Positions 3,107 through 55,200 of a DNA stretch of 64,000 nt are shown here, one piece after another. The position numbers and the translations under genes are program-made. Under the pieces are notes generated by a model. It searched no databases. It was not told where the DNA came from and saw only the letters and a list, made by a program, of their open reading frames with translations. Positions within the stretch are counted from its first letter, which is position 1, and every line of letters begins with the position of its first letter. Source of the stretch: Squalus acanthias (lineage: Eukaryota); the NCBI GenBank assembly GCA_030390025.1, contig CM059431.1, positions 143,222,001 through 143,286,000 of the forward strand, given 5' to 3'.

Positions 3107-4528
3107 TCATTTTCTAACTAATCTCAGAATGAGTGCCCAAGGGGGATTTCACCACCTTCTTCAGCTCTTCTCTGAATTTCCTCTGGGTCGCCACATAAAT
3201 ACATGGGTTTTGAAAGCAACTCAAAAACTTCAATATTGTTCCGGTTTCAGTGGCGATATATCCAGGGTCTGTGCGGTCACCTCGGTAATAAGTGGGTTTG
3301 TCAGTCTGGTAGTTACAAAACTCACGGCAGTTGTCAGCCACAGCAATATAAAACTGCCCGATACAGTGAACAGTAAAATGATGGATTTCCTTCGGTTCTC
3401 CATCTCTGGATCGCTCTGATTTTCACTTCTGTGACCCCGGAGTCCCCTGCAGGCTCTGCTGGCCACTAAAATACGTCTGACTGTCAAATAATTAAACAAG
3501 GCGATTAAAGTAAAAGGAAGCCAAACTAACCAGGCGCTGTAAAACCAGATGTAGGCTGCACCTGGAGGTGAGGAAACAAAAGTCACACTGTTCCGGCAGC
3601 CCCATTGCACCTTGTTAATTATTTGTTCAGCTTCAAATGCAAACAATACGGGGATGTCCTTTAAAAAGATTAGGACTGAGAACGCTGTTATAATCGCGGC
3701 CGCAGTTTTCTCGGTGCAATACTTTGCTTTAAACTTCTGGCAGCAGATAACTACAAATCGATCAAATGTGAAGGAGACGGTGAACCAAACAGACAAATCG
3801 AGGGTGACAACAGTCATGTATAGAACGAACTTACACATGTGAGTGTGATACAGGAAGTAAAGTGGAAAGTGATAATTGAAAATATGATACACGATTACAT
3901 TGATGATCAAGACCAGTAGATCTGCTGTTGCCATGGCCACCATGTAGACAGAGATACACTTGGAAAGACCGCAGTTTCCCCGGGAAAGAATTACCATTGC
4001 CACCAAGTTCGCTGTAAGAAAGAGAGAGCAGAGAAATAATGTTCAAGTGTCTGATTGAAATATATATGGAGATCCCTCTGGAGAGCATTTTACTCCATTC
4101 AGTGTGATTATCAACACGGAGCAGTGTGAGAACAGGATTAGTATTGGAGCCATTACCTGGGAAACCCACCCACACATTTTAATGAGCTGCTGCAGCGCTC
4201 ACTCTGCACGGGGGGACAAGACGATCCGGAAATCCGCTAAAATCCTTGTGTTGTAGCTTCAAAGATTATTGTATCATCAGTGAGTTTATCGGAAGAAGGG
4301 GAATGCGGTAAGTGAGGACACGCGGTTTACGATTTGGTTCCACGCACTACCGACTGTGCAATGCTGCCATCTAGAAAACCAGTTACCTTATCAAACAGGC
4401 TGTATGTACATGGATACAGTTAACCCCGATTAACAACAAACAGGTTAAAATGGCTCACCAGGGACAGCGACGACCACGAGAATCGGGTAGTAAATCTCTT
4501 TGATCAGCAGAATAGTTGATTGCCCCAT
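3107..4528 (-). pseudogene. GPR139/GPR142-like class A GPCR, gene 1, frameshifted. Exon 1 4528..4459, exon 2 4011..3107
   Basis: Exon 1 encodes MGQSTILLIKEIYYPILVVVAVP plus G, then a GTGAG donor; the acceptor is TTACAG at 4012. 7TM motifs are ATADLL, TFDRFV, FILLW and NPCIY. Relative to gene 3 there is a 1-nt deletion near 3294 (premature stop at 3230) and a 1-nt insertion near 3140. The C-terminal part lies in ORF 3114..3341. Confidence 0.88.
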
Positions 4529-4605: not shown

Positions 4606-4685
4606 TATATTTATCCACACATCAAACCTCCAGGGAGTCCATCAGGTTAAATCATAATTAGCATTAGTTACAGTCATTTAACAAA
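4606..4685 (-). promoter_or_regulatory. Putative proximal promoter of gene 1
   Basis: GATAAATATA lies about 80 bp upstream of the ATG. On the + strand: CTCCAGGGA at 4628-4636, TAATTA at 4655-4660 and GCATTAGTTACAGTCATTTAACAAA at 4661-4685. The layout is positionally conserved in the paralogs. Confidence 0.65.
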
Positions 4686-4970
4686 TAGACTCAGGTAAGT
4701 TGTTTTTTTATCTGATACGTCAGATTAAGAGAAATCTGTGAAATTGTTGTTGGATAGTTTTACAAAATACAGCTTTTGAACATTGTTTACGAGTAGGAAG
4801 TGCAATCTCCCAGTCCTGGTGCTGACCCTATTCCTACAGGCCTGGTGAATGCAGCTCCCCAGGCAACAATTGTCATGACCCTGCCCTTGATTCACTCCTA
4901 GTGCACCAACTCCTCCAGAACAGGCAGTGAATCAAATCCTGCAATACTGGTGAAGAGCCCAGTCTGGCAG

Positions 4971-6990
4971 CATTAGAGGTGACAGGGCTCCTCCAGTACT
5001 AGTTGTACCCTACATTTAGATTAGAGGGACAGTTCTCCTCCTGTAATACTGGCAACATAAACTTAGGCTACATGTGTCCGAACTCCTGAGGTACAAGTAC
5101 CGTGTACACTGATGTTGAACGTGCTGATATGGTAATAGTGGTAGCACAACACTAACACTACTATTGACAGTGCTACTCCTCCGATGCTAGTGGAATACCC
5201 CTCATACACTAGATGTGCGTGTGCTCCTCGTGTACAGTAGTATCTCTGCACTTACATTAGATGTGACCGTGCCCCTCCTGTCCCAGTGCTACCACTCCAC
5301 TGACACTAGATGTGACCGTGCCCCTCCTGTCCCATGGTTACCCCTCCACTGACACTAGATGTGACCGTGTCCCTCCTGTTCCAGTGTTACCCCTACACTG
5401 ACACTAGATGTGACCGTGTCCCTCCTGTCCGAGTGTTAACCCTACACTGACACTAGATGTGACCGTGTCCCTCCTGTCCCAGTGTTACCTCTACACTGAC
5501 ACTAGATGTGATCGTGCCCCTCCTTTCCGAGTGCTATCCCTACACTGACACTAGATGTGACCGTGCCCCTCCTGTCCCAGTGCTACCCCTAAACTGACAC
5601 CTGATGAGACCCCTCCTGTCCCAGTGTTACCCCTACACTTACACTAGATGTGACCGTGTCCATCCTGTCCCAGTGTTACCCCTACACTTACACTAGATGT
5701 GACGGTGCCTCTCCTGTCCCGGTGTTACCCCTACAATTACACTACATTTGACGGTGCCTCTCCTGTCCCAGTGTTACCCCTACACTTACACTAGATGTGA
5801 CCGTGTCCCTCCTGTCCCAGTGTTACCCCTACATTTACACTAGAGGTGACCGGCCTCCTTCTGTACTAGTGGTGCCCCTACAATTGCACTAGAGATGACC
5901 GGGCTCCTCCTGTACTAGTGGTGTCACTATACTTACACTAGAGGTGACCTGGCTCCTCTTATACTAGTGGTACCTCTACCCAAATTCTAGCTTTGATCGT
6001 GCTCCTCCTGTACTAGTGGTACCCCTACACTTACACTCAAGGTGACTGTGCTCCTCCTGTACTAGTGGTGCCCGTAAACTTACATTAGTTGTGACCGGGC
6101 TCCTCCGGTACTAGTGGTTCCTTCCACTTACACTAGAGGTGACCGGGCTCCTCCTGTACTAGTGGGACCATCCACTTACACTAGAGGTGACCGGGCTCCT
6201 CCGGTAATAGTGATTCCTTACACTTGCACTAGAAATTACCGGGCTCCTCCTGTACTAGTGGTACCCCTACATTTATACTAGAGGTTACCGGGCTCCTCCT
6301 GTACTCGTGGTACCCCTACACGTACACGAGTGGTGACCTGGCCCCTCCTGTACTAATGGTACCCCTACACTTACACTAGAGATGACCGGGCTCCTCCTGT
6401 ACTAGTGGTACAACTATACTTACACTAGAGGTGACTCAGCTCCTCTTATACTAGTGGTACCTTTACCCTAACACTAGCATTGCCCGGGCTCCTTCTGTAC
6501 TAGTGGTGCCCCTACACTTACACTAGCGTTGACCATGCTCCTCCTGTACTAGTGGTGCCCCTACACTTACACTCGAGGTGACCGTGCTCGTCCCGTACTA
6601 GTGGTGCCCCTACACTAACACTAGAGGTGACCGGGCTCCTCCTACATGAGTGGTACCCCTACAATAACACTACTGTTGACCGTGCTCCTCCTACACTAGT
6701 GGTACCCCTAAAATTAATCTAGAGGTAACCGTGCTCCTCCGGTACTTGTAGCACCGTCACGGTTAAGCAAGGTGTCAGCAAGTTACTCTTGTATTAGTGG
6801 TACCCCTACAATTACATTAGAGATAATAGTGCTCCTCCGGTACTAGTCGTACTCCTACATTTACACTAGTTTTGACCGTGCTCCTTCCGTACCTGTGGTA
6901 CCCTACACATACACTAGAAGTGTACCTGCTCTTCCGGTACGACTGTTACCCTTACACTTACACTAGTGGTTAACGAGCTACCATACACAT
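4971..6990 (+). repeat. Minisatellite of about 49 bp (ACACTAGAGGTGACCGGGCTCCTCCTGTACTAGTGGTACCCCTACACTT) upstream of gene 1, first part
   Basis: Tandem units are directly visible. The array resumes briefly at 7760-7810 and again at 10355-11740. Confidence 0.95.
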
Positions 6991-8794: not shown

Positions 8795-10140
8795 ACATAA
8801 GAACATAAGAACATAAGAAATAGGAGCAGGAGTAGGCCAATCGGCCCCTCGAGCCTGCTCCGCCATTCAATAAGATCATGGCTGATCTGATCGTAACCGC
8901 CAATCTACTATCTATCACAGAACCATCTCCTGCATCTAACAGAATTGCACACACGAAATAGGAGCAGAATCAGGCTACACGGTCCCTGGGCCCGCTCCAC
9001 TACCCACAGGGCCATGACCGATCCGAACCTAGACTCATGTCCAAATTCCTGCCCGCTCCCCGTAACCCTTAATGCCCTTTACTTCTAGGAAACTGTCTAT
9101 TTCTGTTTTAAATTTATTTAATGATGTAGCTTCTACAGCTTTTTGTGGCAGCATATTCCATGGACCTACCACCCTCTGAGTGAAGTAGTTCCTCCTCATC
9201 TCAGTTTTGAAAGAGCAGCCCCTTATTCTAAGACTATGTCCCCTAGTTCTAGTCTCACCCGTCATCGGGAACATCCTCTCCGCATCCACCCGATCCAACC
9301 CCTTCACAATCTTATATGTTTCAATAAGATCGCCTCTCATTCTTCTGAACTCCAATGAGTAGAGTCCCAATCTACCCAACCTCTCCTCATATGACCACCC
9401 CCTCATCCCCGGGATTAACCGAGTGAACCTTTTTTGCACTGCCTCGAGAGCAAGGATGTCTTTCCTTAAGTAAGGACACCAAAACTGTATGCAGTATTCC
9501 AGGTGCGGTCTCACCAATACCTTGTACAACTGAAGCAATACCTCCCTATTTTTATATTCTATCCCCCTAGCAATGAAAGCCAACATTCCATTTGCCTTCT
9601 TAATCACTTGCTGCACCTGCATACTAACCTTTTGAGTTTCGTGCACCAGGACCCCCAGATCCCTTTGCACTTCAGTACTCTCCAGTTTCTTGCCATTAAG
9701 ATAATAAATTGCTCTAGGATTTTTCCTGCCAAAGTGCATCACCTCACACTTTCCAGTGTTGTATTCCATCTGCCAAATCTCTGCCCACTTACTTAGCCTG
9801 TCTATGTCCCCTTGCAGGTTTTTTATGTCCTCCTCACTCACTACTTTCCCTCCCATCTTTGTATCATCTGCAAATTTTGATATGTTACACTTGGTCCCTT
9901 CCTCCAAATCGTTAATATAGATTGTAAAGCGTTGGAGACCCAGCACTGACCCCTGTGGAACACCACTAGTTACTGATTGCCAGTCTGAGAATGAACCATT
10001 TATCCCAACTCTTTGCTTTCTGTTAGATAGCCAATCCTCTATCCATGCCAGAATATTACCCCCAATCCCGTGATTTTTACCTTAAGCAATAATCTTTTGT
10101 GTGGCACCTTGTCAAATGCCTTTTGGAAGTCTAAATACAC
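8795..10140 (-). mobile_element. Young 5'-truncated CR1 LINE with an open RT C-terminal frame (ORF 9035..9946)
   Basis: Peptides YINDL, KFADDTK and LVRPHLEYCIQFW, with a (TTCTTATG)n tail at 8795-8820. Confidence 0.95.
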
Positions 10141-10355: not shown

Positions 10356-11740
10356 TACACTAAATTTGAGTGTTCGCCTCCGTTACTAGTTGTACTCGAC
10401 ACTTACACTAGATGTGACGAGCTCCTCCGTTACTAGTTGTACTCGACACTTACACTAGATGTGACGAGCTCCTCCTGTACTAGTGGCACCTACACTTACA
10501 CTAGATGTGACGAGCTCCTCCTTTACTAGTGGCACCTACACTTACACTAGATGTGTGCGAGCTCCTCCTGTACTATTGGCACCTACACTTACACTAGATG
10601 TGAGCATTCTCCTCCTGTACTATTGGCACCTACACTTACACTAGATGTGTGCGAGCTCCTCCTGTACTATTGGCACCTACACTTACACTAGATGTGAGCA
10701 TTCTCCTCCTGTACTATTGGCACCTACACTTACACTAGATGTGTGCGAGCTCCTCCTGTACTATTGGCACCTACACTTACACTAGATGTGAGCATTCTCC
10801 TCCTGTACTATTGGCACCTACACTTACACTAGATGTGTGCGAGCTCCTCCTGTACTATTGGCACCTACACTTACACTAGATGTGAGCATTCTCCTCCTGT
10901 ACTATTGGCACCTACACTTACACTAGATGTGTGCGAGCTCCTCCTGTACTATTGGCACCTACACTTACACTAGATGTGAGCATTCTCCTCCTGTACTATT
11001 GGCACCTACACTTACACTAGATGTGAGCATTCTCCTCCTGTACTAGTGGCACCTACACTTGCACTAGATGTGAGCGTTCTCATCCTGTACTAGTTGCACC
11101 TACACTTACACTAGATGTGAGCATTCTACTCCTGTACTAAAGGCATCTACACTTACGCTAGATGTGAGCGCGCTCCTCCTGTACTAGTGGCACCTACACT
11201 TACACTAGATGTGAGCACGCTCCTCCTGTACTAGTGGCATCTACACTTACACTAGATGTGAGCGTTTTCCTCCTGTACTAGTGGCACCTACGCTTACACT
11301 GGATGTGAGCACGCTCTTCCTGTACTAGTGGCACTTACACTTACACTAGATGTGAGCGTTCTCCTCCTGTACTAGTGGCACATACACTTGCACTAGATGT
11401 GAGCGCGCTCCTCCAGTACTAGTGGTACCCTACACATCGACTAGTGGTGACCGGGCTCCTCTGGTACTGGTGGTACATGTCAATTACACTAGATGAGAGC
11501 GTTCACCTCCTGTACTAGTGGCACCTACACTTACACTAGATTTGAGCATTCTCCTCCTGCACTAGTGGCACCTACACTTACATGAGAAGTGACCGTGCTA
11601 CTCCGGTATTAATCGCACCAGTACCTTTGCACTAGAGGTGACCGCAATCCTGCGGTACTAGTGCAACCACTGCACTTCCTCCAGATATGACTGCGCTCCT
11701 CCGGTACTGGTGATACACGACACTTACACAAGAGGTGATC
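10355..11740 (+). repeat. 46-47-bp variant of the receptor-associated minisatellite
   Basis: Units are CTGTACTATTGGCACCTACACTTACACTAGATGTG(TGCGAG/AGCATT)CTCCTC. Confidence 0.95.
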
Positions 11741-20340: not shown

Positions 20341-22047
20341 TTAACCAAAAAATGTGCAAGGCCATTTCACCACATTCTTCAGCTCTTCCCTGAATTTACT
20401 TTGGGTAGCTGCATAAATACATGTGTTTGTACAGGAACTCAAATACATGAGCATATATCCGGTTTCAGTGGCAATATAGGCAGGAGCTGCATAATCACCT
20501 CGATATTGCGCGGTGTTTGTCAGTCTGGTAGTTAAAAAACTAACGATAGCTGTTAGCCACAACAATATAAAACTGCCCGATACACTGAACAGTAAAATAA
20601 TGGATTTCCTCCGGTTCTCCATCTCTGGGTCGCTCTGATTCTCACTGCTGTGACCCCGGAGTCCCCTGCGGGCTCTACTGGCCACTAAAATGCGTCTGAC
20701 TGTCAAACAATTAAATAGTAAGATCAAAGCAAAAGCAAGCCAAGCAATGAAAATACTTTCCAACCAGGAGTATGCTGCACCTGCAGGCGATGAAAAAAAC
20801 TCCACTCTGGCGCGGCAACCCCAGTGAACATTGTTAATTATTCTCTCAGGTTCATATGCAAACCAAAAAGGGAGGCTCTGTAAACAGATCAGGAGAGAGA
20901 CCGTTGTTATAATCGCGGCCGCAGTTCTCACTGTGCAATACTTTGTTTTAAACTTCTCACAACATATAGCTACAAATCGGTCAAATGTGAACGAGACTGT
21001 AAACCACACCGACACATACAGGGTGACACATTGCATGTACATAATGATCTTACAGACGGCAGTGTAGGACAGGAAGGAATGTGGAAAGTGATGACTGATA
21101 ATGCGGTTCACTGATATATTGATGATCATTACCAGTAGATCTGCTGTTGCCATGGCCACCATGTAGACAGAGATACATTTGGAAAGGCCGCAGTTTCCTC
21201 TGGAGAGAATCAGGATTGTCAGTAGGTTCGCTGTGAGAAAGAGGTGGAAGAGGTCAGTAACGGAGACACTCGGATAAATCTCACAGCTTATTGTGGGGAA
21301 ATGTGCGGATCTGTCCTTATTCAGCGTTATGCTCACGGATCTTTTATCATTAATATAAGCGAGGGTAAAGACACTTTATTTAAAGAAATGAAATCATTGA
21401 GAATACAATATCGAGGGACTGAAAATCCGCCGTCCTTCCAGCAAACTTCAGTCAAATACTAAATATAATTTCACGGCATTTCATTGAAAGATATAATTCA
21501 AATAAAACATTCAGCTGAGAGAAAACAGTTCAATTTAATTCGAAACGCTTCCGAGAGGAGGGGAGCAGCTCCCCGAGCAACAATTATTTCTAAAATTACC
21601 TTCCAAAGTCCAGTGTTGGGTGGAGGTGGCTGAAGTGCCAGGAATGATCAACTTAAAATAGACAGAGCACAAAGGTACGAATCAGATGATTACTATGGAC
21701 AATGAGCAACACCGTCTGAGTGATCTATGTACTGTAGGAGGGCCGGGGAATCCGCCTCGCCCTCCCTCCGTATAGGGATGACAGTTGAGCGCCCGGTGCC
21801 CACGATCTTGCGACCAGAACAGCGCCTCAGCGGCCGCGCGGACTGCCAGAATTCCCGCTGATATTCACCGACTGATCCCGGTGGATCAATGATTCTGCAA
21901 TGAGGACATTCTCGGATTCTGTTACATTAACACTGAGATAGTCAACAACTATTCGACAACAGGATACATTGACTTACCGGGAACACCGAAGGCTGCGAGC
22001 ATATGGTAGTAAATGTCCCTTATCTGTAGAATTGTTGGCCGTATCAT
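20341..22047 (-). CDS. GPR139/GPR142-like class A GPCR, gene 2, intact, 319 aa. Exon 1 22047..21978, exon 2 21230..20341
   Basis: Exon 1 encodes MIRPTILQIRDIYYHMLAAFGVP plus G, then GTAAGT; the acceptor is TTCTCACAG. 70+890=960 nt in frame. Motifs are ANLLTIL, ATADLL, TFDRFV, FILLW and NTCIY. Confidence 0.92.
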
Positions 22048-22125
22048 TATTTTGAATAATGTGTGAATTCTGTCCCGCTTTACGGTTCGGACTGGAGTTT
22101 ATCTGAGATCCGTAAATGCTCCCAA

Positions 22126-22200
22126 TTTATACAAAAATCGTTGCCCCGTGAGAAAATCAGGTGACACAATAAGTGGCGTTAGTTACAGTCACTTAACAAA
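22126..22200 (-). promoter_or_regulatory. Putative proximal promoter of gene 2
   Basis: TATAAA on - at 22126-22131. On +: CCCCGTGAGA at 22144-22153, ATCAGGT, and GCGTTAGTTACAGTCACTTAACAAA at 22176-22200 (23/25 identical to gene 1). Confidence 0.65.
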
Positions 22201-22449
22201 CAAGGAGCGATTTTCCACTTCAGTGCGCCCGGGCCACCACTGGCGAAATTGTAAAGCTCAGTCCATGAAACTCATTCCATTAAAATCATTGAGCGGAAAG
22301 TAATCCCAGAGGGAATGTTTTCTGTGCATGCCCCCTGAACGCTGAAGGGAACATCCCTCCCGGACACCGCGTTAGTTCTTGTGACCTCATTTTAATTCTC
22401 TGAAAACATCAGTCATCCATTGCATAAATTAAATTTGTTATGTACTGTA

Positions 22450-25151
22450 ATGATTACTAGTGGTGACTCAGCTCGAACATGGCTAGTGATGATCCTACTT
22501 TAACACGAACAATAATGACCATATTCTAACATTCATGGTGGTGATGTTATTCTAACATTACTGGTGGTGAATGTACTCCAACATTAGCAGTGGGGACTCT
22601 ACTATAACATTACCGGTGGTGACATTAATCCAGCATTAGAAATTCTGACCACACTCGAACATTACTGGTGATGCCCTACACTAACATTACTGAAGGTGAT
22701 CCCACTTTAACGTTACTGATGGTAGCTATAGACTAACATTAATTGTGTTGGCCCTATCGTAACATTACTGGCGGTAATCCTATTCAAATATTATTGGTGA
22801 TGACCCTACACTAACATAACTGGTGGTGATACTACTCTGAATTTACTGGCGGTGATCCTATTCAAACATTACTGGTGGTGACCCTACTCTAACATTAATG
22901 CTGATGACCTTACTCTATCATTAATGATGGTGGCCCTACTGTATCCTTACTGGTGCTGATTCTACTCTAACATTACTGGTGGTAACCCTAGTCAAATATT
23001 ACAGGTGGATGACCCTACTCTATCATTACAGGTGGGTGAACCTACTCTAACATTACTGGTGAAGACCCAACTCTAACATTACTGGTGGTGACTCTACTCT
23101 ATCATTACTGGTGGTGAACCTATACTATCATAACTGGGGGTGACACTGCTGTAACATTTCTGGTGTAGACCATACTCTAACATTACTGTGGTGAATCTAC
23201 TTTAACATTACTGGCGATGATTCTATTCTAACATTTCTGGTGTTGATGTTAATTTAACATCAATAGTCGTGACCCGCACTAACATTAGTGATGGTGAATC
23301 TATTCTAATTTTACTGCTGCTGCCACTACTAAAACGTTAATGGCAGCAATCGTACTGTTATATTACTTGTGTTTATTCTGCTCTAAGACTGATGGTGACC
23401 CGAATCTAACATTAGTGGTGGTGACATTACTCCAATATTATTGGTGGTGCATCTGCTCTAACATTGCATGTGGTCTCCATATTCTGACGTTAATGATGAG
23501 TACTGTACTCTAACATTACTGCTGGTCATCGCACTGTAAAATTAATAGTGTTAATCCTATTCTAACATAGTGGTGATAATAATCTAACAATTTGGCGGCG
23601 ACCCACTCTAACTTTACTGATGGTAACTATACGCTAACATTAATGGTGTTAGCCCTATCCTATCATTACTGGCGGTAATCCTATTCAAATATTATTGGTG
23701 TTGACCCTACACTAACATTAAGGTGGGGATAGTACACTAATATTAATGGCGGTGATCCTATTCTTTGATTACTGGTGGTGACCATACTCTAACATTAATG
23801 GTGATGACCTGACTCTAACATTACTGATGGTGGCCCTACTCTATCATTACTGGTGGTGAGTCGATCCTAACATTCTGGTGATGACCCTACTCTAACATTA
23901 CTGGTGGTGACCTTACCCTAACATTACTGGTGGTGACTCGACACTACCATTACTGATGCTGACCCTACACTAATATTACTGGTGGTGACCCTACCCTAAC
24001 ATTACTGGTGGTGACTCGACACTAACATTATTGTGTTGACCCTACACTAAAATTGCAGCTGGTGACCCTAATCTAACATTACTAGTTGTGACCCTACAGT
24101 AACATTTCTGGTGATGACTCTACTATATCATTACTGGTGGTCATCCTACTCTAACATTACTGCTCGCGAGCCTACTCTATCATTACTTTTGGTTACCCTA
24201 CTCTAACCTTACTGGTGGTGACCCTACTCTTTCATTACTGGTTGTGAACCCACACTATCATTACTGGTGGTGACCCTACTGTAACCTTACTGTCGGTGAC
24301 CCTGCGCTTACATTACTGCTGATGACCCGACTCTATCATTAATGGTGGTGTCTCTACTCTAAAATTATTGGCAGTGATTATATTCTAATATTACTGGTGA
24401 TGACCCTACTCTATCATTACTGGTGGTGACCCTACTTTATCATTACTGGTGGTGACCCTACTCTAACATTACTGCTGATGACCCTACTTTATCGTTACTG
24501 GTGGTGACCCTACGCTAACATTTCTGGTGTTGACCCTACTCTAAATTTACTGGTGAGGACCCGACTCTAACATTACTGTTGATGACCCTGCTCGAATATA
24601 ACCTGTGATGACCCTACTCTATCATTACTGGTGGTGACCCTACTCTATCATTACTGGTGTTGACCCTACTCTATCTTTACTGGTGTTGACCCTACTCTCA
24701 CAGTACTAGTGATGACCCTACTCTATCATTACTGGTGTTGACCCTACTCTATCATTACTGGTGGTGAGCCTACACTATCATTAATGGCGGTGACCCAATA
24801 TAACATTACTTGTGCCTCCCCGACTCTAACATTACTGGTGTTCATGTTAATTTAACATCAATAGTCGTGACCCCGCACTAATATTAGTGATGGTGACACA
24901 ATTCTAATTTTACTGCTGCTGCCACTACTAAAACGTTACTGGTGGAAACCCTACTGTAATATTACTTGTGTTTATTCTACTCTAAGACTGATGGTGACCC
25001 GGATCTAACATTAGTGGGTTGTCCTTACTCCAATATTATTGGTGGAGCATCTGCTCTAAATTTACATGTGGTCTCCATACTCTGACGTTACTGATGAGTA
25101 CTGTACTCTAACATTACTGCTGGTGATCGCACTCTAAAATGAATAGAGTTA
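22450..25151 (+). repeat. 26-bp minisatellite (AACATTACTGGTGGTGACCCTACTCT) upstream of gene 2
   Basis: About 100 degenerate tandem units are visible, with an internal long-range duplication. Confidence 0.95.
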
Positions 25152-25495
25152 ATGAAGGATGTTCCCGATGGCGGGGAGTCCAGAACCAGGGGTCACAGTC
25201 TAAGGATAAGGGGTAAGCCATTTAGGACTGAGATGAGGAGGAATTTCTTCACCCAGAGAGTGGTGAACCTGTGGAATTCTCTACCACAGAAGGCAGTTGA
25301 GGCCAATTCATTAAATATATTCAAGAAGGAGTTAGATATATTTCTTAAGGCTAAAGGGATCAAGGGATATGGGGAAAAGGCAGGGACAGGGTACTGAATA
25401 TGTATGATCAGCCATGATCTCATTGAATGGCGGAGCAGGCTCGAGGGGCCGAAAGGCCTACTCATGCTCCTATCTTCTATGTTTCTATGTTTCTA
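25152..25495 (+). mobile_element. CR1 LINE 3' end fragment
   Basis: Peptide ESRTRGHSLRIRGKPFRTEMRRNFF and a (CTATGTTT)n tail. Confidence 0.92.
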
Positions 25496-28175
25496 AGGGC
25501 TCAAGTCGTCGTTGTTAAAAATTCTCTGAAGCAACACAAGAAACGTCTTTGCATCGATTACTCGCAAACTATTAACCAGTATACCGACCTGGATGCCTAC
25601 CCACTACCACGCAACGATGACATGGTCAATAACCTTGCTAACTACAAGGTATTTTCAACTTTTGACTTAAAGAGCGCATACCATCAAGTACCGGTAAAGG
25701 AATCTGATGAAAGGTATACGGCTTTTGAGGCCAATGGTCTGCTTTACCAGTTTCGTCGCCTTCCATTCGGGGTCACCAATGGGGTGGCCGTCTTTCAACG
25801 GGCAATGGATAGCCTAGTCAAACAGGAGAACTTAACAGACAGCTTTTCCATATCTTGGTAATATCACCATTGCTGCTCATGATCAGAAGGAGCATGATGC
25901 CAACCTCCAGAAATTTCTTGACGTTCTCCGTCGTCGCATCTTAACCTTAAATGAGTTCAAATCTGTGAAATCAGTACCATCAGTCAACATCCTTGGCTAC
26001 TGGGTGGGCAATGGTGTCATCAAACCGGATCCGGAGTGACTTCATCCGCTTCAGGAGCTCCCTCCTCCTACGAATCTCAGCTCTCTTCGTCGGGCCCTCG
26101 ACATGTTCGCCTATTATGCGAAGTGGATACCTCACTTTCCTGACAACATCCAGCCCCTGCTTCATACAAAGTCATTTCCGTTGGAGGCGAGGGCTAGTTT
26201 AGCTTTCGACCTCCTCAAGCAACAACTGGAAAAAGCCGCTCTTCATTCCATCGATGAAAATTTCCCTTTTGTGGTCGAGTGCAATGCATCGGAGGTGGCG
26301 ATCTCTGCTACCTTGAATCAAGGCGGTCGACCCGTTGCCTTTCTGTCTAGAACTTTGCAGGGTAGCGACCTGCATTACCCTCCTGTCGAGAAGGAGGCTA
26401 TGGCTATCATTGAGGCACTATGTAAGTGGAGTTATTTTCTCGCCCGTCGCCATGTCACGCTCATAACCGATCAGTGCTCGGTGGCCTTTATGCTGGATAA
26501 CCGGAAATGCACTAAAATAAAGAATAACAAAATACAGCTCTGGAGGATGGAATTGGCCGCTTTTGACTACACCATACAATATCGACCCGGCAAGGAGAAT
26601 GTGGCCGTGGATACACTCATGCTTGCATTCTGCTCTTCCATATCAACTTCGACTCTTGCGGGTCTTCATACTGCCTTATGCCATCCTGGCGTTACCCATA
26701 TGTTGCACTTTGTGCGATCTAAAAATCTCACATTTTCTACGGAAGACATGAAAAGAACATGCTCCACTTGTAGAATTTGATCGGAATTAAAACCGCAATT
26801 CTTCCGTCCGTCGGATGGCTCACTCATACACGCTACACAGCCTATGCAGCGACCCTGCATTGACTTTAAAGGGCCATTGCCTTCCTCCACGCGAAACACC
26901 CACTTGCTTACTATGGTGGATGAATATTCACGCTTTCCCTTTGCTTTCCCCTGTCCCAATATGCTTACTTCCACAGTGATCAAATGCCTCGATCAGGCCT
27001 TTTCCCTTTGCGGTATGGCCAATTTCATCCACTCTGATCGGGGTCCCTCCTTCATGTCAAGTGAATTCAAAAGTTATCTTTCCCAACGGGGAATCACCAC
27101 AAGTAAATGGACACCGTATCATCCTATTGGAAACGGACAGGTTGAGAGATACAATGTGATCATTTGGAACACTGTTCGTCTTGCACTGAGATCACCCAAT
27201 CTACCAGACCAGCAGTGGGAAACTATGCTCCCTGACGCGTTGCATTCCATCAGGTCTCTTCTTTCTGCATCCACCAATGTTACTCCTCACGAACGATTCT
27301 TCGGGTTCCAGCGTCGCTCCACTCATGGGACGTCCTTACCATCATAGTTGGCAGCTCCTGGCTCCGTGCTGCTCCGAAGATTCGTCCGATCCTCCAAGAG
27401 TGATCCCCTCGTCGACCATGTGGAACTAATGGATGTCAATCCTACATACGCGTACGTGCGGTACCCTGATGGCTGGGAGTCCACAGTTTCACTTCGGGAT
27501 CTGGCTCCCTGCCCAACCGGTCCCACGGACCCAATCGATAGAGAGATCCGTATTAACGACGCCGATACTCCGCGCTCCTCCGAGGATGACGCCCTACCCG
27601 GCACATAAAGGGATCTACCAGCTACTTTGCTGGATCAACCCGGGGAACAGAGCGCTCCCCGCCGGATGGCCACACGAAGCCAGGACGCCGGTCAATCACC
27701 GGCTACTGAGCAGGATGAAGCCAGCTCTGCACCTGTGGTGGCTCGCACCCGGAGCCAAGGTCTCCCCAGTCCCCCTCAGGTCGATCCAGGCGACACGAGC
27801 TCTGTCAGCCCGCCGGTACGAACCAAGTGACCCAGCGACCAAAACACAGTCCGAGGAGACGTGCCTTCCGGCCTCCAACGGAAATCCAAAGGACTGCATC
27901 TAATCTTAGTCCAGCTAATTCGGTAGAAGGAAGCCGCTGGACTTCCAATCTTTCAGGCGGGAAGAATGACATCAATCTTGTATGAAGTAATACTGGGTGG
28001 CCTGCTGGTGGCGCTGTCCAGGGAGAGTATAAATACTAGTGCATGAGCCCAACTTGCTTAGGGTATGCCTCAACTGGAACTAGTAAAGGACAGAACTAGA
28101 TCTCCATGTTGAAAACCAGTTGATTAAAGCTTTGTTTAACACTTAGACCAAGTGCCTAGTAGTTTTCTTACATCA
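25496..28175 (+). mobile_element. 5'-truncated, decayed Ty3/Gypsy LTR retrotransposon (RT, RNase H, integrase, 3' LTR)
   Basis: RT: RLCIDY...DAYPLP, FDLKSAYHQ, LPFGVTN. RNase H: VVECNAS, EKEAMAII. Integrase: IDFKGPLP, HSDRGPSF, GNGQVERYN. Polypurine tract AGGCGGGAAGAA at 27955-27966. Several stops and frameshifts. Confidence 0.92.
27967..28175 (+). repeat. 3' LTR of the Gypsy element (about 209 bp)
   Basis: Starts with TG right after the PPT, ends ...TTACATCA, and contains TATAAATA and ATTAAA. Confidence 0.7.
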
Positions 28176-29481: not shown

Positions 29482-30342
29482 GTTAGCAATGAGAGAATCT
29501 CCCAGAATTCACAATTTAAACCCAGACAAAATCTATTCACATTATTCGCTACAACAAAGAGCACAGCCAAGACAATGAGATGTGTCCCAGGGGGTCCAGC
29601 GTGTCAAACCACCTGCTGGCTGCATATCCTGTCAATTTGTGTTCTTGTGTTTTTAAAAAAAAAACAAAAACAAAAACAAAAAAAAAAAAAACACCTGGGA
29701 AGACCGGCCATGATGTCAAGTCACGTTCTGTATCGTGACATGAACCCGATATCGCGATTGAGGCCATCCTCATGAGTGCGGAACTTGGCTATCAGTTTCT
29801 GCTCTATGATTTTGCGCTGTCGTGTATCTCGAAGGCCGCCTTGGAGAACGCTTACCCGCAGATCCGAGGCTGAATGCCCCTGGCTGCTGAAGTGTTCCCC
29901 GACTGGGAGGCAACCCTCCTGCCTGGCGATTGTTGCGCGGTGTCCGTTCATACGTTGTCTCAGTGTCTGCATGGTCTCGCCGATGTACCATGCTCTGGAG
30001 CATCCTTTACTGCAACGTATCAGGTAGACAACGTTGGCCGAGTCACATGAGTATGTACCGTGTACCTGGTGGGTAGTGTCCTCACGTGTAATGATGGTAT
30101 CTGTGTCCATGATTTGGCATGTCTTGCAGAGGTTGCCGTGGCAGGGTTGTGTGGTGTCTTGGTTGCTGTTCTCCTGAAAGATGGGTAATCTGCTGCGAAC
30201 GATGGTACTTTTGAGGTTAGGCGGCTGCTTGAAGGCGAGTAGTGGAGGCGTGGGGATGGCCTTAGCAAGGTGTTCGTCGTCATCGATGACATGTTGAAGG
30301 CTGCGAAGAACATGGCGTAGTTTTTCCGCTCCGGGGAAGTCC

Positions 30343-30975
30343 TACGTCGTCCAGTACTTCCCCGGAGCGGAAAAACTACGCCATGTTCTTCGCAGCCTTC
30401 AACATGTCATCGATGACGACGAACACCTTGCTAAGGCCATCCCCACGCCTCCACTACTTGCCTTCAAGCAGCCGCCTAACCTCAAAAGTACCATCGTTCG
30501 CAGCAGATTACCCATCTTTCAGGAGAACAGCAACCAAGACACCACACAACCCTGCCACGGCAACCTCTGCAAGACATGCCAAATCATGGACACAGATACC
30601 ATCATTACACGTGAGGACACTACCCACCAGGTACACGGTACATACTCATGTGACTCGGCCAACGTTGTCTACCTGATACGTTGCAGTAAAGGATGCTCCA
30701 GAGCATGGTACATCGGCGAGACCATGCAGACACTGAGACAACGTATGAACGGACACCGCGCAACAATCGCCAGGCAGGAGGGTTGCCTCCCAGTCGGGGA
30801 ACACTTCAGCAGCCAGGGGCATTCAGCCTCGGATCTGCGGGTAAGCGTTCTCCAAGGCGGCCTTCGAGATACACGACAGCGCAAAATCATAGAGCAGAAA
30901 CTGATAGCCAAGTTCCGCACTCATGAGGATGGCCTCAATCGCGATATCGGGTTCATGTCACGATACAGAACGTGA
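30343..30975 (+). CDS. Penelope GIY-YIG endonuclease domain with a Cys-rich linker (fragment; mirror copy on - at 29721-30340)
   Basis: PPLLAFKQPPNL, CHGNLCKTC, NVVYLIRC...WYIGET...RQRMNGH, VGEHF, EQKLI and GLN. Confidence 0.9.
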   Translation, partial: YVVQYFPGAEKLRHVLRSLQHVIDDDEHLAKAIPTPPLLAFKQPPNLKSTIVRSRLPIFQENSNQDTTQPCHGNLCKTCQIMDTDTIITREDTTHQVHGTYSCDSANVVYLIRCSKGCSRAWYIGETMQTLRQRMNGHRATIARQEGCLPVGEHFSSQGHSASDLRVSVLQGGLRDTRQRKIIEQKLIAKFRTHEDGLNRDIGFMSRYRT

Positions 30976-31214
30976 CTTGACATCATGGCCGGTCTTCCCA
31001 GGTGTTTTTTTTTTTTTTGTTTTTGTTTTTGTTTTTTTTTTAAAAACACAAGAACACAAATTGACAGGATATGCAGCCAGCAGGTGGTTTGACACGCTGG
31101 ACCCCCTGGGACACATCTCATTGTCTTGGCTGTGCTCTTTGTTGTAGCGAATAATGTGAATAGATTTTGTCTGGGTTTAAATTGTGAATTCTGGGAGATT
31201 CTCTCATTGCTAAC

Positions 31215-31894: not shown

Positions 31895-33195
31895 TTGAAG
31901 GAGCACAGTCACTAATAGTGTAAATGTAGGAGTATCACTAGTATCGGAGGAGCACTGTTATTTCCAGTGTAATTATAGGGGTACCACTAATGCAAGAGCA
32001 TCATGGTCACACCTAGTTTAAGTGTAGCGGTACTACTTGTACCGGAGGAGCACGGTCACCGCTAGTGTTAGTGTAGGTTAGCACTAGTGTAGAATGAGCA
32101 TTGTCAACACTAGTGTTAGTGTAGGTTACCACCAGTTTAGGAGGAGCACGGTTTACATTAGTGTAAGTGTAAGTTACCACTAGTGTAGGTAGAACACGGT
32201 CAACACTAGTGTTAGTGTAGTGATTCCACGAGCACCTGAGGAGGACGGTGACTGTAAGTGTAAGTGTAGGCATGCCACTAGTGAATGCTCCTCTGTAGTA
32301 TAAGTGTATGTACAACAAGTACCAGAGGAGCAAGGTCACATAAAGTGCCAGCACATCTTTTTGAGCAGCACGTGTACGTGTCGGGGACCACAAGTACGGG
32401 AGGAGCACGGTTAAATCTGGTCTTAGTGTAGGGGTATCACTAGTACCGAAGGAGCACAGTCAAACTTAATGTAAATATAGGGATACCACTAGTACAGGAG
32501 GAGCACAGTCACATCTAGTGTAAGTGTAGGGTTTCCACTGGTACTGGAGGAAAATTTTCACCACTGGTGTAATTTTACTGATACCACTATTACCAGAGGA
32601 GCTTGCACAAATCTAGTGTAAGTGTAGGGGTAGCACTGGGACAGGATGGGCACGATCACATCTAGTGTAAGTGTAGGGGTAGCACTGGGACAGGAGGAAC
32701 ACGATCACATCTAGTGTAAGTGTAGGGGTAAAACTGGGCCATGTGGGGCACGGTCACATCTAGTGTCAGTGTAGGGGTAACACTGGGACAGGAAGGGCAC
32801 GGTCACATCTAGTGTAAGTGTAGGGATAACACTGGGACAGGAGGGGCACGGTCACATCTAGTGTATGTGTAGTGGTAACACTGGGACAGGAGGGACACGG
32901 TCACATCTAGTCTCAGTGTAGGGGTAACACTGGGACAGGAAGGGCACGGTCACATCTAGTGTCAGTGTAGGGATAACACTGGGACAGGAGGAGCACATGC
33001 TCATATAGTGTATGAGGGGGGTTTCCACTAGTACCGGAGGAGCTCTGCCAATAGTAGTGCTAGTGTAGTGCTACCACTATTACCATAGCAGCACGTTCAA
33101 CTCCAGTGTAGGCATGTTACTAGTGCCTGATGAGTACGGACACATCTAGCGTAAGTGTACAGTGCCAGTAGCCCAGGAGGAGAACTGTCACCTCG
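31895..33195 (-). repeat. Receptor-associated minisatellite of about 49 bp upstream of gene 3 (reverse orientation)
   Basis: CACGGTCACATCTAGTGTAAGTGTAGGGGTAACACTGGGACAGGAGGGG units are the reverse complement of the gene 1 array. Confidence 0.93.
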
Positions 33196-33475
33196 AATGC
33201 TGCCGGACTGGGTTCATCACCAATATCGCACGATGTGATTCTGGAGGAGTTGGTGCACTAGGAATGAATCAAGGGAAGGGTCATGACAATTATTGCCTGG
33301 GAAGCTGCCTTCAACAGGCCTGTAGGAATAGGGTCAGAAATAGTCCTTGGAGAATGCACTTCATACACGTAGACAATGTTTTAAATCTGCATTTTTTTTG
33401 TAATTGTCCAACAACAATTTCACATATTTCTCTTAAACTGACGTATCAGATAAAAAAACAACTTACCTGAGTCTA

Positions 33476-33555
33476 TTTGTTAAATGACTGTAACTAATGC
33501 TAATTATGATTTAACCTGATTTACTCGCTGGAGAATTGATGTGTGTATAAATATA
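33476..33555 (+). promoter_or_regulatory. Putative proximal promoter of gene 3
   Basis: TTTGTTAAATGACTGTAACTAATGC at 33476-33500, then TAATTA, ACCTGAT, TCGCTGGAG and TATAAATATA at 33546-33555. Confidence 0.65.
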
Positions 33556-33632
33556 GGTTCCCTTCCATTGCCCCAGCCGTGCGCCAGTCAGAGTCTTTCA
33601 ATTCCTACAGAATTCATCCATTCTCACAGAAA

Positions 33633-34992
33633 ATGGGGCGAACAATTATTCTGCTGAGCACAGAGTTTTACTACCCGATTCTCGCGGCCGTCGGTGTCCC
33701 CGGTGAGCCATGGTAGCCTGTTTTTTGTTAATCGGTGTTAATTGTATTCATGTACATACAGCCTGTTTGATAAGATAACGAGTTTTCCAGATTTCAGCAG
33801 TATACAAATCCGATAACCTCACTGATGTTGCAATGTTCTTTGAAGCTCCAACACAAGGATTTCAGCAGATTTCCGGACCGTCTTGTCTCCCCGTGAAAAG
33901 TGAGCGCTGCAGTAGCTCATTAAAATGTGTGGGTCGTTTTTTCACGCAATGGTTCCAAAGCTAATCCTGTTCTCACACTGCTCCCTATTGATAATCACAC
34001 TGAATGGATTAAATTGCTCACCACAGGATCTCCATATATATTTCAATCAGACACTGGGATATTATTTCTCTCCTCTCTTTTTTACAGCGAATTTGGTGAC
34101 AATTGTGATTCTCTCCCGAGGAAACTGCGGCCTTTCCAAGTGTATCTCTGTCTACATGGTGGCCATGGCAACAGCAGATCTACTGGTCATGACAGTCAAT
34201 GTAATAGTGTGTCATATTTTCAATTATCGCTTTCCACTTTCATTCCTATCCCAGACTCCCGTGTGTAAGTTCATTCTATACATGACTGCTATCAACCTCG
34301 ATTTGTCTGTTTGGTTCACCGTCTCCTTCACATTTGACCGATTTGTAGTTATCTGCTGCCAGAAGTTTAAAGCAAAGTACTGCACCGAGAGAACTGCATC
34401 CGCGGTTATCACAGCGTTCACGGTCCTGATCCTTTTAAGGGGTATCCACATTTTGTTTGCATTTGAACCACAGCAAATAATTAACAAGGTGCAGTGGGGC
34501 TGCCGGAACAGTGTGACTTTTGTTTCCTCACCTCCAGGTGTTGCCTACATCTGGTTTCACAGCGCCTGGAGCGTTTGGCTTCCTTTTACTTTAATTGCCT
34601 TGTTAAATTATTTGACAGTCAGACGTATTTTAGTGGCCAGCAGAGCCCGCAGAGGACTCCGGGGTCACAGGAGTGAAAATCAGAGCGATACCGAGATGGA
34701 GAACCGAAGGAAATCCATCATTTTACTTTTTACTATATCCGGCAGTTTTATATTGCTGTGGCTGACAACTGCCGTGAGTTTTGTAACTACCAGACTGAAA
34801 AACACCACCTATTACCGAGGTGACCGCACAGACCCTGGATATATCGCCACTGAAACCGGAACAATGTTGAAGTTTTTGAGTTGCTTTCAAAACCCGTGTA
34901 TTTATGTAGCGACCCAGAGGAAATTCAGAGAAGAGCTGAAGAAGTTGGCAAAATCCCCCTGGGCACTAATTCTGAAATTAGTTAGAAAATGA
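33633..34992 (+). CDS. GPR139/GPR142-like class A GPCR, gene 3, intact, 324 aa. Exon 1 33633..33702, exon 2 34088..34992
   Basis: Exon 1 encodes MGRTIILLSTEFYYPILAAVGVP plus G, then GTGAG; the acceptor is TTTACAG. 70+905=975 nt in frame. Motifs are TFDRFV, FILLW and NPCIY. Confidence 0.92.
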
Positions 34993-45068: not shown

Positions 45069-46476
45069 CTAGTTCAGCTTTCTTTCATGTTTAACCAATC
45101 TTAGAATCAGTGTCGAGGGAGATTTCATCAGCTTCTTCAGCTCTTCTCTGAACTTCCTCTGGGTCGCTGCATAAATACACGGGTTTATACAGGAACTCAA
45201 AAGCTTCAGCATGGCTCCGGTTTCAGTGGCGATATAAGCTGGGTTTGTGCGGTCGCCTCGGTAATAATTGATGTTTGTCATTCTGGTAATTAACAAATTC
45301 ACGGCAGTTGTCAACCAAAGCAATATAAAACTGCCCGATATAGCGAAGAGCAAAATGATGGATTTCCTTCGGTTCTCCAGCTCTGGATCGCTCTGATTCT
45401 CACTCTTGTGACCCCGGAGTCCCCTGCGGGTTCTGATAGCCATTAAAATACGTCTGACGGTCAAATAATTAAACAAAGCCATTAAGGTAAAGGGAAGCCA
45501 AACGAGCCATATGATGTGAAACCAGAGATACGCTTCACCTGGAGGTGCGGAAAAAAAAGCTACACTTGACCGACAGCCCCACTGCACCTTGTTAATTATT
45601 TGCTCAAATTCATATGCAAAAAAAGCGACAATGCCCTTTAAAAAACTCAAAATAGAGAACGATGTTATAACCGCGGCCGCAGTTCTCTCGGTGCAATACT
45701 TTACTTTAAACTTCTGGCAGCAGATAACTACACATCGGTCAAATGTGAAGGAGACGGTGAACCAAACAGACAAATCGAAGGTGACAGCATTCATGTATAG
45801 ATTTAACTTACACACGGGAGTCTGGGACATGAAGGAAAGTGGAAAGTGATAATTTAAAATATAATACGCCATTACATTAATGATCATGACCAGTAGATCT
45901 GCTGTTGCCATGGCCACCATATAGACAGAGATACACTTGGAAAGGCCGCAGTTTCCTCGGCAGAGAATCACGATTGTCACCAAGTTCGCTGTAAGAAAGA
46001 GAGAGGAGAGAAATAATGTTCCAGTGTCTGATAGAAATACATATGTAGATACCTGTTGAGGGCATTTTACTCCATTCAGTGTGATTATCAACGGGAGCAG
46101 TGTAAGAAAATGATTAGTATTGGAGCCATTACCTGGGAAACCCACCCACACATTTTAATGAGCTGCTCAAACGCTCACTCTGCACGTGTTGACAAGACTG
46201 TCCGTAAATCCATAAATACCTTGTGTCGGAGCTTCAAAGAGCATTGAACATCAGTAAGGTTATCAGATTAAAGGAAAAGCGCGGAGTGTGAAACGCGGTT
46301 CATTGTGCAATGCTGACATCCGTAAAACAGTTACCTTATGCAACAGACTGCAAGAACACAGAAATAGTTAACACCGATTAACAACAAACAGATTGCAATG
46401 ACTTACCGGGGACACCGACAGCTGCGAGAATCGGGTACTAAATCTCTTTGACCAGCAGTATAGCTGGTCGCCCCAT
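45069..46476 (-). pseudogene. GPR139/GPR142-like class A GPCR, gene 4, with a nonsense codon in exon 1. Exon 1 46476..46407, exon 2 45988..45069
   Basis: Exon 1 reads MGRPAILLVKEI*YPILAAVGVP; the TAG at 46438-46440 replaces the TAC of the paralogs. Donor GTAAGT, acceptor TTACAG. Exon 2 is fully open, with DRC instead of DRF. Confidence 0.88.
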
Positions 46477-46553: not shown

Positions 46554-46633
46554 TATATTTATCCACACATCAATCCGCCAGGGAGTCAATCATGTTAACT
46601 CATAATTAGCATTAGATACAGTCATTTAACAAA
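46554..46633 (-). promoter_or_regulatory. Putative proximal promoter of gene 4
   Basis: GATAAATATA on -. On +: CGCCAGGGA at 46576-46584, TAATTA, and GCATTAGATACAGTCATTTAACAAA at 46609-46633. Confidence 0.6.
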
Positions 46634-46919: not shown

Positions 46920-47265
46920 GCGTTAGAGGTGACCGTGCTCCTCCACTGTTAGTGATCAGCTACACTTACACTAGAGGTAATCGTGATCCTCTGGTACTAG
47001 TGTTACCGGCACATTTACACTAGAGTTGACCACACTCCTACAGTACTGGTGATACCTAACACTTACGTTTGAGATGATCATGCTCCTCCAGTACTTGCGG
47101 TAGCCTACACTGACACGAGTGGTGACCGTGCTCCTCCAGTACTCAGGGTATCCTACACTAACACTAGTGGTGACCGTACTCCTCCAGTAGTCAGGGTACT
47201 CTACACTAAACTAGCGGTGACCGTGCTCCTCCAGTACTCGGTGTTCCCTACACTAACACTAGAGT
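46920..47265 (+). repeat. Receptor-associated minisatellite of about 49 bp upstream of gene 4 (resumes at 50020-50390)
   Basis: AGAGGTGACCGTGCTCCTCCAGTACT...CCTACACTAACACTAG units. Confidence 0.9.
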
Positions 47266-53400: not shown

Positions 53401-55200
53401 ACTGGTTGGTAGACAGGAAGCAAAGAGTTGGAATAAATGGGTATTTTTCCGAGTGGCAGGCAGTGACTCGTGGGGTACCGCAGTGATCGCTGCTAGGACC
53501 CCAGCTATTCACAATATATATTAATGATCTAGATGAGGGAACTAGATGTAATATCTTTATGTTTGCAGACGACACAAAGCTGGGTGGGCGTGTGTGCTGT
53601 GAGGAGGAAACAGAGAAACTCCAGTATGATTTGGACAGGTTGGGTTATTGGGCAGATGCATGGCAGATGCAGTATAATTTGGATAAATGCGTGGTTATCC
53701 ACTTTGGTGGCAAAAACAGGAAGACAGATTATTATCTGACGGCAATAGATTCGGAAAAGGGGTAGTGCAACGAGATCTGGGAGTCCTTGTGCACCAGTCA
53801 CTAAAGGTAAGTATGCAGGTGCAGCAGGCGGTTAAGAAGGCAAATGTTATGTCGGCCTTCATAGCAAGAGGATTCGAGTACAGGAGCAAGGATGTCGTGC
53901 TGCAGTTGTACAAGACCTTGGTGAGACCACACCTTGAGTATTGTGTGCAGTTTTGATCGCCTTATCTGAGGAAGGATGGTCTTGCCATGGAGGGAGTGCA
54001 GCGAAGATTTACCAGTCTGATACCTGGGATGGCAGGAATGACGTATGAAGAGAGATTGGGTCGATTAGGATTATATTCGCTAGAGTTTAGAAGAATGAGA
54101 TGGGATCTCATTGAAACTTATGAAATTCTAACAGGAATAGACAGACTAGATGCAGGAATGATGTTCCCGATGGCGGGGGAGTCCAGAACCAGAAGTCACA
54201 GTCTAAGGATAAGGGGTAAGCCATTTAGGACTGAGATGAGGAGGAATTTCTTCATCCAGAGTGTCGTGAACCTGTGGAATTCTCTACCACAGAAGGCATT
54301 TGAGGCCAATTCATTAAATATATTCAAGAAGGAGATAGATATATTTCTTAAGGCTAAAGGGATCAAGGAATATGCGGAGACAGCAGGGACAGGGTAGTGG
54401 ATTTGGATGATCAGCCATGATCTCATTAAATGGCGGATCAGGCTCGAGCGGCCGAATGGCCTACTCCTGCTCCTATCTTCTATGCTTCTATGCTTCTATG
54501 TTAGGCTAAATGGCCTATAGTTTCCTGCTTTCTGTCTCCCTCCTTTCCTGAATAGTGGCGTTACATTGGCGGTTTTCCATTCCGCTGGGACCTCTCCAGA
54601 ATCCAGGGAATTTTGATAGATTACAACCAACGCATCCACTATCTCTGCAGTCACTTCGTTTAAGACCCTAGGATGCAGGCCTTCAGGACCAGGGGACTTG
54701 TCGGCCTTCAGCACCCTTAGTTTGCCGAGTACTTTTTCTCTAGTGATAAAGATTGTTTTAAGTTCCTCCCTCCCTATAGCCGCTTGATTATCTATTATTA
54801 TTTGGTTGTTTTTAGTGTCTTCTACCGTGAAGACTGATCCAAAATAATTGTTTAGAGTCTCTGCGATTTCTCTATTGCCCATTCTTAATTCCCCAGTCTA
54901 ATCTTCTAAGGGACCAACGTTTACTTTAGCTATTCTCTTCCTTTTTATATACCTGTAGAAGCTCTTACTGCCTGTTTTTATAGTATTTGCTAGTTTACTC
55001 TCATAATCCTTCTTCTCCCTCTTTATCATTTTTTTAGCTTTCCTTTGCAGATTTCTAAACATTTCCCAATCATCTGGGCTACCACTAATCTTCGCAACAT
55101 TGTATGCCTTTTCTTTCAATTTGATACCATCCTTAACTTCCTTCGTTAACCACGGATGGTGCACCCTTCTCGTAGAGCCTTTCTTTATCACTGAAATGTC
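50435..55200 (-). mobile_element. CR1 LINE interrupted by a second CR1 on the opposite strand
   Basis: Tail at about 50437-50460, PQGSVLGP and YLDFQKAF. The + strand sequence CCCAATGACAGATG at 51802-51815 resumes as TTAGGCTAAATGGCC at 54501. Confidence 0.92.
51816..54497 (+). mobile_element. Nested CR1 LINE (APE endonuclease part, RT and 3' tail)
   Basis: GVVYRPP, MGDFN, GRSDHN, KSPGPDNLHPRVLKE and MFADDTK, with a (CTATGCTT)n tail and ATG duplicated at both junctions. Confidence 0.93.

Follow-up and report, generated by a model that had tools for sequence, protein, structure and literature searches.

Why should a short motif stand at almost the same distance ahead of four receptor genes when one of the four has an intron and a 5′ flank that do not visibly align with those of another? 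This question is raised by the window, a stretch of 64,000 nucleotides of the Squalus acanthias genome (contig CM059431.1) for which a preliminary description had reported such a 25-bp motif and read it as a family-specific cis-regulatory module under purifying selection. The comparisons described below support a family-specific cis-element under purifying selection, for which regulatory activity is predicted. We put at about 0.82 the probability that this element, called Box A here, is a real, family-wide, selected promoter element of shark GPR139-like receptors, situated about 48 bp upstream of a TATA box.

The four genes of the window are built alike: coding exon 1 has 70 nt, a phase-1 intron of 385-747 bp follows, and exon 2 matches 7tm_1. 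Genes 2 (319 aa) and 3 (324 aa) are intact and genes 1 and 4 are disrupted. The frameshift of gene 1 reflects either a broken gene or an assembly error, and the same two options apply to the stop at codon 13 of gene 4. A further element, Box B, sits between Box A and the TATA box. The features are the following:

22179..22202, minus strand: Box A of gene 2, with a Forkhead-like 5′ half followed by RTGACTG and TAAYTAA
22143..22160, minus strand: Box B of gene 2, a degenerate homeodomain plus O/E(EBF)-like composite, shorter by 1 bp than its counterparts in close paralogs
22124..22131, minus strand: TATA box of gene 2
21978..22047, minus strand: coding exon 1 of gene 2, 70 nt, with a phase-1 GT donor
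20341..21230, minus strand: exon 2 of gene 2, spliced ORF intact, 319 aa, 7tm_1
4664..4687, minus strand: Box A of gene 1
4627..4644, minus strand: Box B of gene 1
4608..4615, minus strand: TATA-like box of gene 1, GATAAA variant
4459..4528, minus strand: coding exon 1 of gene 1
3230..4011, minus strand: exon 2 of gene 1 to its first stop, frameshifted, 283 aa (stop at aa 284), the 7tm_1 match stopping at profile position 228/260
33474..33497, plus strand: Box A of gene 3
33517..33534, plus strand: Box B of gene 3
33546..33553, plus strand: TATA box of gene 3
33633..33702, plus strand: coding exon 1 of gene 3, its joint with exon 2 seen in a paralog contig
34088..34992, plus strand: exon 2 of gene 3, spliced ORF intact, 324 aa
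46612..46635, minus strand: Box A of gene 4, one substitution off the consensus
46575..46592, minus strand: Box B of gene 4
46556..46563, minus strand: TATA-like box of gene 4, GATAAA variant
46407..46476, minus strand: coding exon 1 of gene 4, with a stop at codon 13
45069..45988, minus strand: exon 2 of gene 4

All four genes have a minisatellite array upstream of Box A, beginning a few hundred bases away from it. A 47-49 bp unit is common to genes 1, 3 and 4 (5132-6966, 32399-33068 and 47017-47264), and the array of gene 2 differs in having a 26/52 bp unit (22525-25137); an array at 10356-11738 is also listed. Judging by ORF appearance, the intervals 25427-27903, 29655-31041, 9035-10081 and 52503-54897 appear to contain pieces of Gypsy-like retroelements (RT, RNase H, integrase), fragments of CR1-type LINEs, and an inverted GIY-YIG/Penelope-like ORF pair flanked by poly-A and poly-T.

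The 25-mer is present where it had been described, at 4661-4685 (−), 22176-22200 (−), 33476-33500 (+) and 46609-46633 (−). The window has no other copy, even allowing up to 6 substitutions. The generalised 24-mer retrieves the same four sites, against 0.00 expected from 100 shuffles. The original bounds have to be shifted: the conserved unit extends 2 bp further 5′, and the last 3 bases of the 25-mer are not conserved across the family. The fixed distance to the start codon was confirmed, the A of the ATG being base +133, +129, +133 and +133 after the motif in genes 1, 2, 3 and 4. However, this spacing is correct only as a description of the window, and the real anchor throughout the family is the TATA box. 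The TATA-like boxes noted in all four genes start 84-87 bp before the ATG, and read TATAAA in genes 2 and 3 and GATAAA in genes 1 and 4. ATCAGGT (ACCTGAT on the coding strand) is kept, as claimed, in three genes (1, 2 and 3) and is absent from gene 4; its position overlaps the beginning of Box B, and it is restricted to the C7 subfamilies.

Although the four paralogs do share the motif, they amount to only two independent lineages. Because genes 1, 3 and 4 can be aligned throughout, the real evidence of the window is the comparison of gene 2 with the rest. Here the earlier observation held: the 25-mers of genes 1 and 2 are identical at 23/25 positions (0.92), whereas the flanks are at background, with identities of 0.50 in the upstream 300 bp (shuffled 0.49) and 0.41 in the intron (shuffled 0.39). 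The stretch from motif to ATG gives 0.57 (shuffled 0.47).

The named proteins nearest to the family come from sharks and carry the automatic name "probable G-protein coupled receptor 139" (2,182 matches, the best at 82%). Human GPR139 is among the best PDB matches, but it is remote (E 8.5e-5). A DNA pattern for TM3, in exon 2, has about 2,800 matches genome-wide against 0 in the control, and an exact exon-1 pattern has 643 against 0, both counts including broken copies and possibly haplotigs. Strong 7tm_4 (OR) matches genome-wide are only three or four (C7:2.83 and 3.03 Mb, C1:262.4 Mb, C2:213.7 Mb). A literature search, with most subscription journals and some supplements outside its range, found nothing on this shark receptor family or on the Box A motif.

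A tree of 46 rows places genes 1, 3 and 4 in a clade that lies apart from gene 2 and includes a sawfish and a zebra-shark protein. Judging from this topology, the two promoter types are therefore older than the split between sharks and rays, dated to more than 270 My in the available text of PMC11979771. A long branch in the same tree connects a salamander protein to the expanded clade. Salamander proteins (P0225 group: Pleurodeles, Ambystoma, Lissotriton) cluster with the shark expansion at 100/98, again on a long branch, hinting that the family may predate sharks and survive in urodeles. GPR139/GPR142 and the auto-named shark proteins are the closest known receptors to the family, and two single-copy paralogs with bony-fish orthologs (C17:37.41 Mb and C9:120.5 Mb) fall outside the expanded clade, together with coelacanth and teleost proteins; no match to Box A above 7.5 bits was found around either of them.

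The consensus of Box A is TRTTTGTTMA(+0/1 bp)RTGACTGYAAYTAA. The genome-wide scan for enrichment next to the family, which had been suggested as a check, returned 2,064 matches with up to 2 mismatches against 4 in the control, a count that leaves out the class with one extra spacer base. The exact 25-mer of the preliminary description occurs 199 times (control 0) and the commoner C variant of Box A 696 times as exact matches (control 0); this variant and the 2-bp 5′ extension were found from loci picked by exon 1. A non-random sample of 65 distinct exact sites was taken from the first places among the matches listed. Sixty of them precede family coding sequence, a result at odds with the dispersed repeat that had been named as a possible refutation; three precede a Box B/TATA of the family type, and the last two are short promoter remnants within clusters.

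Box A was also sought in 146 genes picked independently of the motif, by protein, exon-1 or exon-2 pattern, and having exon 1 and 300 bp of upstream sequence. Within 520 bp of the exon-1 donor, 128/146 genes reached a score of 16 bits or more, against 0/146 in antisense; the PWM came from 24 lineages, with some of the tested genes among them, and paralogs are not independent. In half of the 18 genes below the cut-off, Box A lies beyond an insertion, further upstream (L037, L081-L084, L086, L111, L226, L248). The others are five C1 genes, a broken gene with a deletion inside Box A (L212), and three genes of one lineage (L247, L250, L256) in which parts of Box A are kept and the middle RTGACTG is lost. 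The C12 lineages differ from Box A at 5 positions. When loci were picked by exon 2, 13/20 had no visible exon 1 or Box A in 9 kb, and exon 1 was later found in two. Upstream of the four best OR-like genes, no Box A match above 12.6 bits was found within 20 kb; therefore, Box A is not a general shark OR signal. The idea that it is an OR gene promoter was likewise rejected, since genes 1-4 match 7tm_1 only and the OR genes lie elsewhere, without Box A in that range.

Box A is present across lineages whose flanks cannot be aligned and whose proteins are down to 44% identical. For instance, the identical 25-mer occurs in a C26 subfamily with a protein 44-48% identical to that of gene 3 in near-full-length matches. 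When 24 promoter lineages are compared in pairs, identity averages 0.81 for Box A, against 0.35 and 0.28 in two 24-bp blocks upstream and 0.41 downstream. The corresponding values for 18 lineages picked without the motif are 0.78, 0.36, 0.29 and 0.39. Positions 1-10 and 15-24 are nearly fixed, positions 11-14 vary, and one extra base follows position 10 in 10/24 lineages, which shows that Box A consists of two modules that tolerate a 1-bp change of spacer. Tandem copies of Box A exist in two unrelated lineages and are of independent origin: one has two or three units of 48 bp and the other two units of 51 bp (L132/L179 and L136, C3:206.8-207.9 Mb; L144, L154, L156 and L127, C7:148-149 Mb).

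The distance from Box A to the TATA box is 47-50 bp in 19/24 lineages, the other five having 22, 32, 36, 41 and 52 bp, while the distance from Box A to the exon-1 donor varies between 171 and 461 bp. Box A thus keeps a fixed position relative to TATA, as is proper to a proximal promoter, and both move together where retroposons have pushed them 1-3 kb upstream. In the C1 subfamily (C1:98.9-99.7 Mb), a LINE separates the promoter from the ATG. Loss of the motif was rejected for this subfamily, because Box A, Box B and TATA were located intact 1.9-2.7 kb upstream in 5/5 genes tested; the exon-2 frames are open in 4/4. The three elements are likewise displaced upstream in a C9 gene and in L037/L110, L226 and L248. 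In the same C1 subfamily (L281-L290), a GT donor-like site lies 112 bp after TATA and an AG directly precedes the ATG in 5/5, which suggests that a new 5′ UTR intron was created from the LINE insertion. Other loci (L126/L127 and L115/L116; C7:148-150 Mb, C17:64.3 Mb) have a long, repeat-extended exon 1 (N-terminal ectodomain), and here Box A and the donor can be as much as about 460 bp apart.

Selection was assessed by parsimony changes per site on a tree built from intron and exon 2. For the subfamily of genes 1, 3 and 4, 65 paralogs were aligned and 60 retained, the five in which other DNA has replaced the promoter being dropped (L024, L201, L202 and L240, broken; L226, intact). In the 38 intact genes, Box A shows 0.62 changes per site against 1.72 in the intron (p=0.00016), the other values being 0.50 for TATA, 2.13 for the 60 bp upstream and 1.88 for third codon positions. 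None of 819 24-bp windows is lower, so that Box A is the least-changed 24-bp non-coding window of these genes. In the 22 broken genes the difference shrinks to 0.92 against 1.18 (p=0.19), and 162 windows are lower. The subfamily of gene 2, from which L037 was left out for this comparison, gives 0.25 against 0.75 in 25 intact genes (p=0.002) and 0.29 against 0.58 in 9 broken ones (p=0.053). Relaxation of Box A in broken genes is clear in the former subfamily and weak in the latter, and exact-match rates of intact and broken genes differ at p=0.06 only. The objection that the motif might be no better conserved than neighbouring DNA was thus answered across the 24 promoter lineages and within two subfamilies; purifying selection on Box A exceeds that on its surroundings, another property of a proximal promoter.

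Three runs of one study, taken by guess to be RNA, contain joints between exon 1 and exon 2, in one contig each. The first base of the spliced paralog contig is 33576, which lies 30 bp beyond the start of TATA, and other contigs cross Box A. Contigs of two runs cross Box A and also cover the intron, and so these runs, which may contain DNA or longer transcripts, cannot place the transcription start or speak for an expression level or tissue.

Could the conservation have a different cause? The similarity might be passive, that is, the result of recent duplication or gene conversion, or left over from a transposon end or a dispersed repeat. Of the four window genes, three are indeed recent duplicates, the family is highly redundant, with some small-contig copies that may be haplotigs, and gene conversion has been proposed for the homogeneity of V1R promoters (PMC1955453, available text). 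However, between lineages on different chromosomes the flanks are no more alike than background, the homology of close paralogs runs more than 400 bp upstream, so that Box A is no element boundary, and 60 of the 65 sampled exact sites lie ahead of family coding sequence. The rate deficit is also stronger in intact genes, and Rfam covariance models have 0 matches in the window. As an account of the whole motif this explanation is refuted, and we give it hardly any credit. A role in splicing is largely refuted as well and appears equally improbable. Box A contains CTAAC/CTAAT and could be a distant branch point for an acceptor-like TCTCACAG found ahead of the ATG in many lineages, indeed most (33623-33635 in the window, and equivalents), the region being then a 5′ UTR intron. 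This TCTCACAG may be a relic of an acceptor, because the outgroup gene at C9:120.5 Mb has a true-looking one directly before its ATG. Nevertheless, the distance of Box A is fixed to TATA and not to the AG, many AGs lie in between, Box A shifts along with TATA after retroposon insertion, and the spliced paralog contig passes through TCTCACAG to 33576.

Long zinc-finger sites with variable spacers exist, and the whole 24-25 bp could be one site of a single multi-finger C2H2 protein (CTCF/REST-like), acting as activator, repressor or loop anchor. The unusual length, the 3′ half without a convincing known site and the near invariance over more than 270 My (date from the available text of PMC11979771) would suit such a protein. 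This reading is nonetheless unlikely: the halves decay independently, the 5′ half being kept where the middle is lost, there are two spacer classes 1 bp apart, the 5′ half matches the Forkhead consensus, and a distance to TATA kept so strictly points to contact with the basal machinery.

A promoter element made of two modules remains the preferred reading, and candidate factors can be proposed for its parts. The Forkhead consensus is RYAAAYA in the accessible parts of published Forkhead papers, and the 5′ half of Box A fits its reverse (TRTTTRY) in 21/24 lineages. At position 2, an interchange of G and A recurs in several clusters (13 cases among the first 100 C-variant matches listed). The 5′ half is thus probably a Forkhead site. 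On sequence grounds there is no secure factor for the 3′ half, because the TAAT homeodomain core is missing in lineages reading AACTAAC. The candidates would presumably include a Pax3/7 paired-homeodomain composite, a Pax6 RED half-site, an Nkx6/Lhx-type homeodomain, HNF1 and MEIS. A C/EBP-ATF composite is, we assume, one base too long, and a SIX/MEF3-like reading of ATCAGGT presumably fits the C7 subfamilies only.

The best fit to the O/E consensus, taken from the mouse OR promoter paper PMC3247239 (available text), peaks 21-22 bp before TATA, within Box B (6.46 against a median of 3.54). In 10/24 lineages a TAATTR-like hexamer precedes the pyrimidine-NN-purine half of Box B with a spacer of 2 bp, against 0-2 lineages at other spacers, and the homeodomain half is poor in 14/24. 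Both the 2-bp spacer and the pyrimidine/purine pattern are those of the Sfaktiria probe of the Greek Island Lhx2/Ebf composite (Monahan et al. 2017, PMC5608512, supplement 7, available portions); according to that paper, stretches of this kind are tolerated in the Ebf half, and the spacing matters critically. Binding of Box B by Lhx2/Ebf is, on these resemblances, slightly favoured. In the accessible text of the same paper, the mouse composite is enriched in intergenic enhancers over promoters, whereas the shark Box B is found in every promoter, next to TATA; moreover, Box A has no counterpart in the mouse composite. Foxj2 sites are reported for OR enhancers in the available text of PMC5318403.

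Box A with a Fox protein and a partner, and Box B with a homeodomain/EBF pair, would likely form a proximal-promoter platform active in one cell type. A predicted Forkhead factor would occupy the 5′ half of Box A and a second predicted factor its 3′ half; together with the homeodomain/EBF pair predicted for Box B, they would build a compact enhanceosome recruiting TBP. Transcription would start about 25-30 bp after TATA, and every member of the family would be switched on in one cell type. With its own Box A, Box B and TATA, each duplicated gene would carry the cell-type switch wherever it lands. By analogy, the expressing cell might be an olfactory or other chemosensory neuron, a speculative proposal that we hold at somewhat less than even odds. 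EBF and Fox factors also act in tissues other than the olfactory one. It is equally a matter of speculation that tandem copies of Box A could raise the chance of a gene being chosen.

One stereotyped element before each member of a large variable family is also found in the clustered protocadherins (CSE) and in the immunoglobulin V genes (octamer plus TATA); these are single-locus systems, whereas the shark family spans many chromosomes. The mouse OR genes are similar in being a huge clustered family of class A GPCRs with proximal O/E-like and homeodomain-like sites and TATA enrichment (PMC3247239 and PMC5318403, available text). However, TATA is described there in a subset only, and the available text of Young et al. 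2011 (PMC3247239) gives no further common motif, unlike the shark family, where a near-invariant 24-bp Box A and TATA stand at fixed spacing in most lineages. V1R promoters also resemble those of the shark family, being conserved within subfamilies and sharing short motifs across divergent ones (Stewart and Lane 2007, PMC1955453, available text). These cross-subfamily motifs have about 12 bp and about 10 bits and are invisible to alignment in that text, while Box A has 16-40 bits and is visible by eye. A motif of the length and rigidity of Box A is not reported in the accessible parts of these OR and V1R promoter papers (PMC3247239, PMC1955453). The promoter grammar would be unusually rigid for a receptor superfamily and more stereotyped than reported for OR or V1R genes.

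Cartilaginous fishes are described as poor in GPCRs and olfactory receptors in the available text of two papers (PMC8455134; PMC11979771). Yet in this genome about 2,800 exon-2 copies of one orphan family stand against the three or four strong OR matches. A bolder reading, which we consider tentative and somewhat doubtful, is that Box A, Box B and TATA might be the cis-code of an unrecognised chemoreceptor family, the fifth of vertebrates, exceeding every mammalian OR repertoire in size. Each gene would carry in its promoter a Greek-Island-like enhancer core plus a Forkhead module, the genes would be rivals for singular choice in shark olfactory neurons, and the outcome would be biased in lineages with two or three Box A copies. 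If true, this would overturn the view of sharks as having few GPCR chemoreceptors. Box A, which is common to about 2,000 copies of the family, offers a handle on the cell type, on the factors involved and on the promoters of the family in any shark genome.
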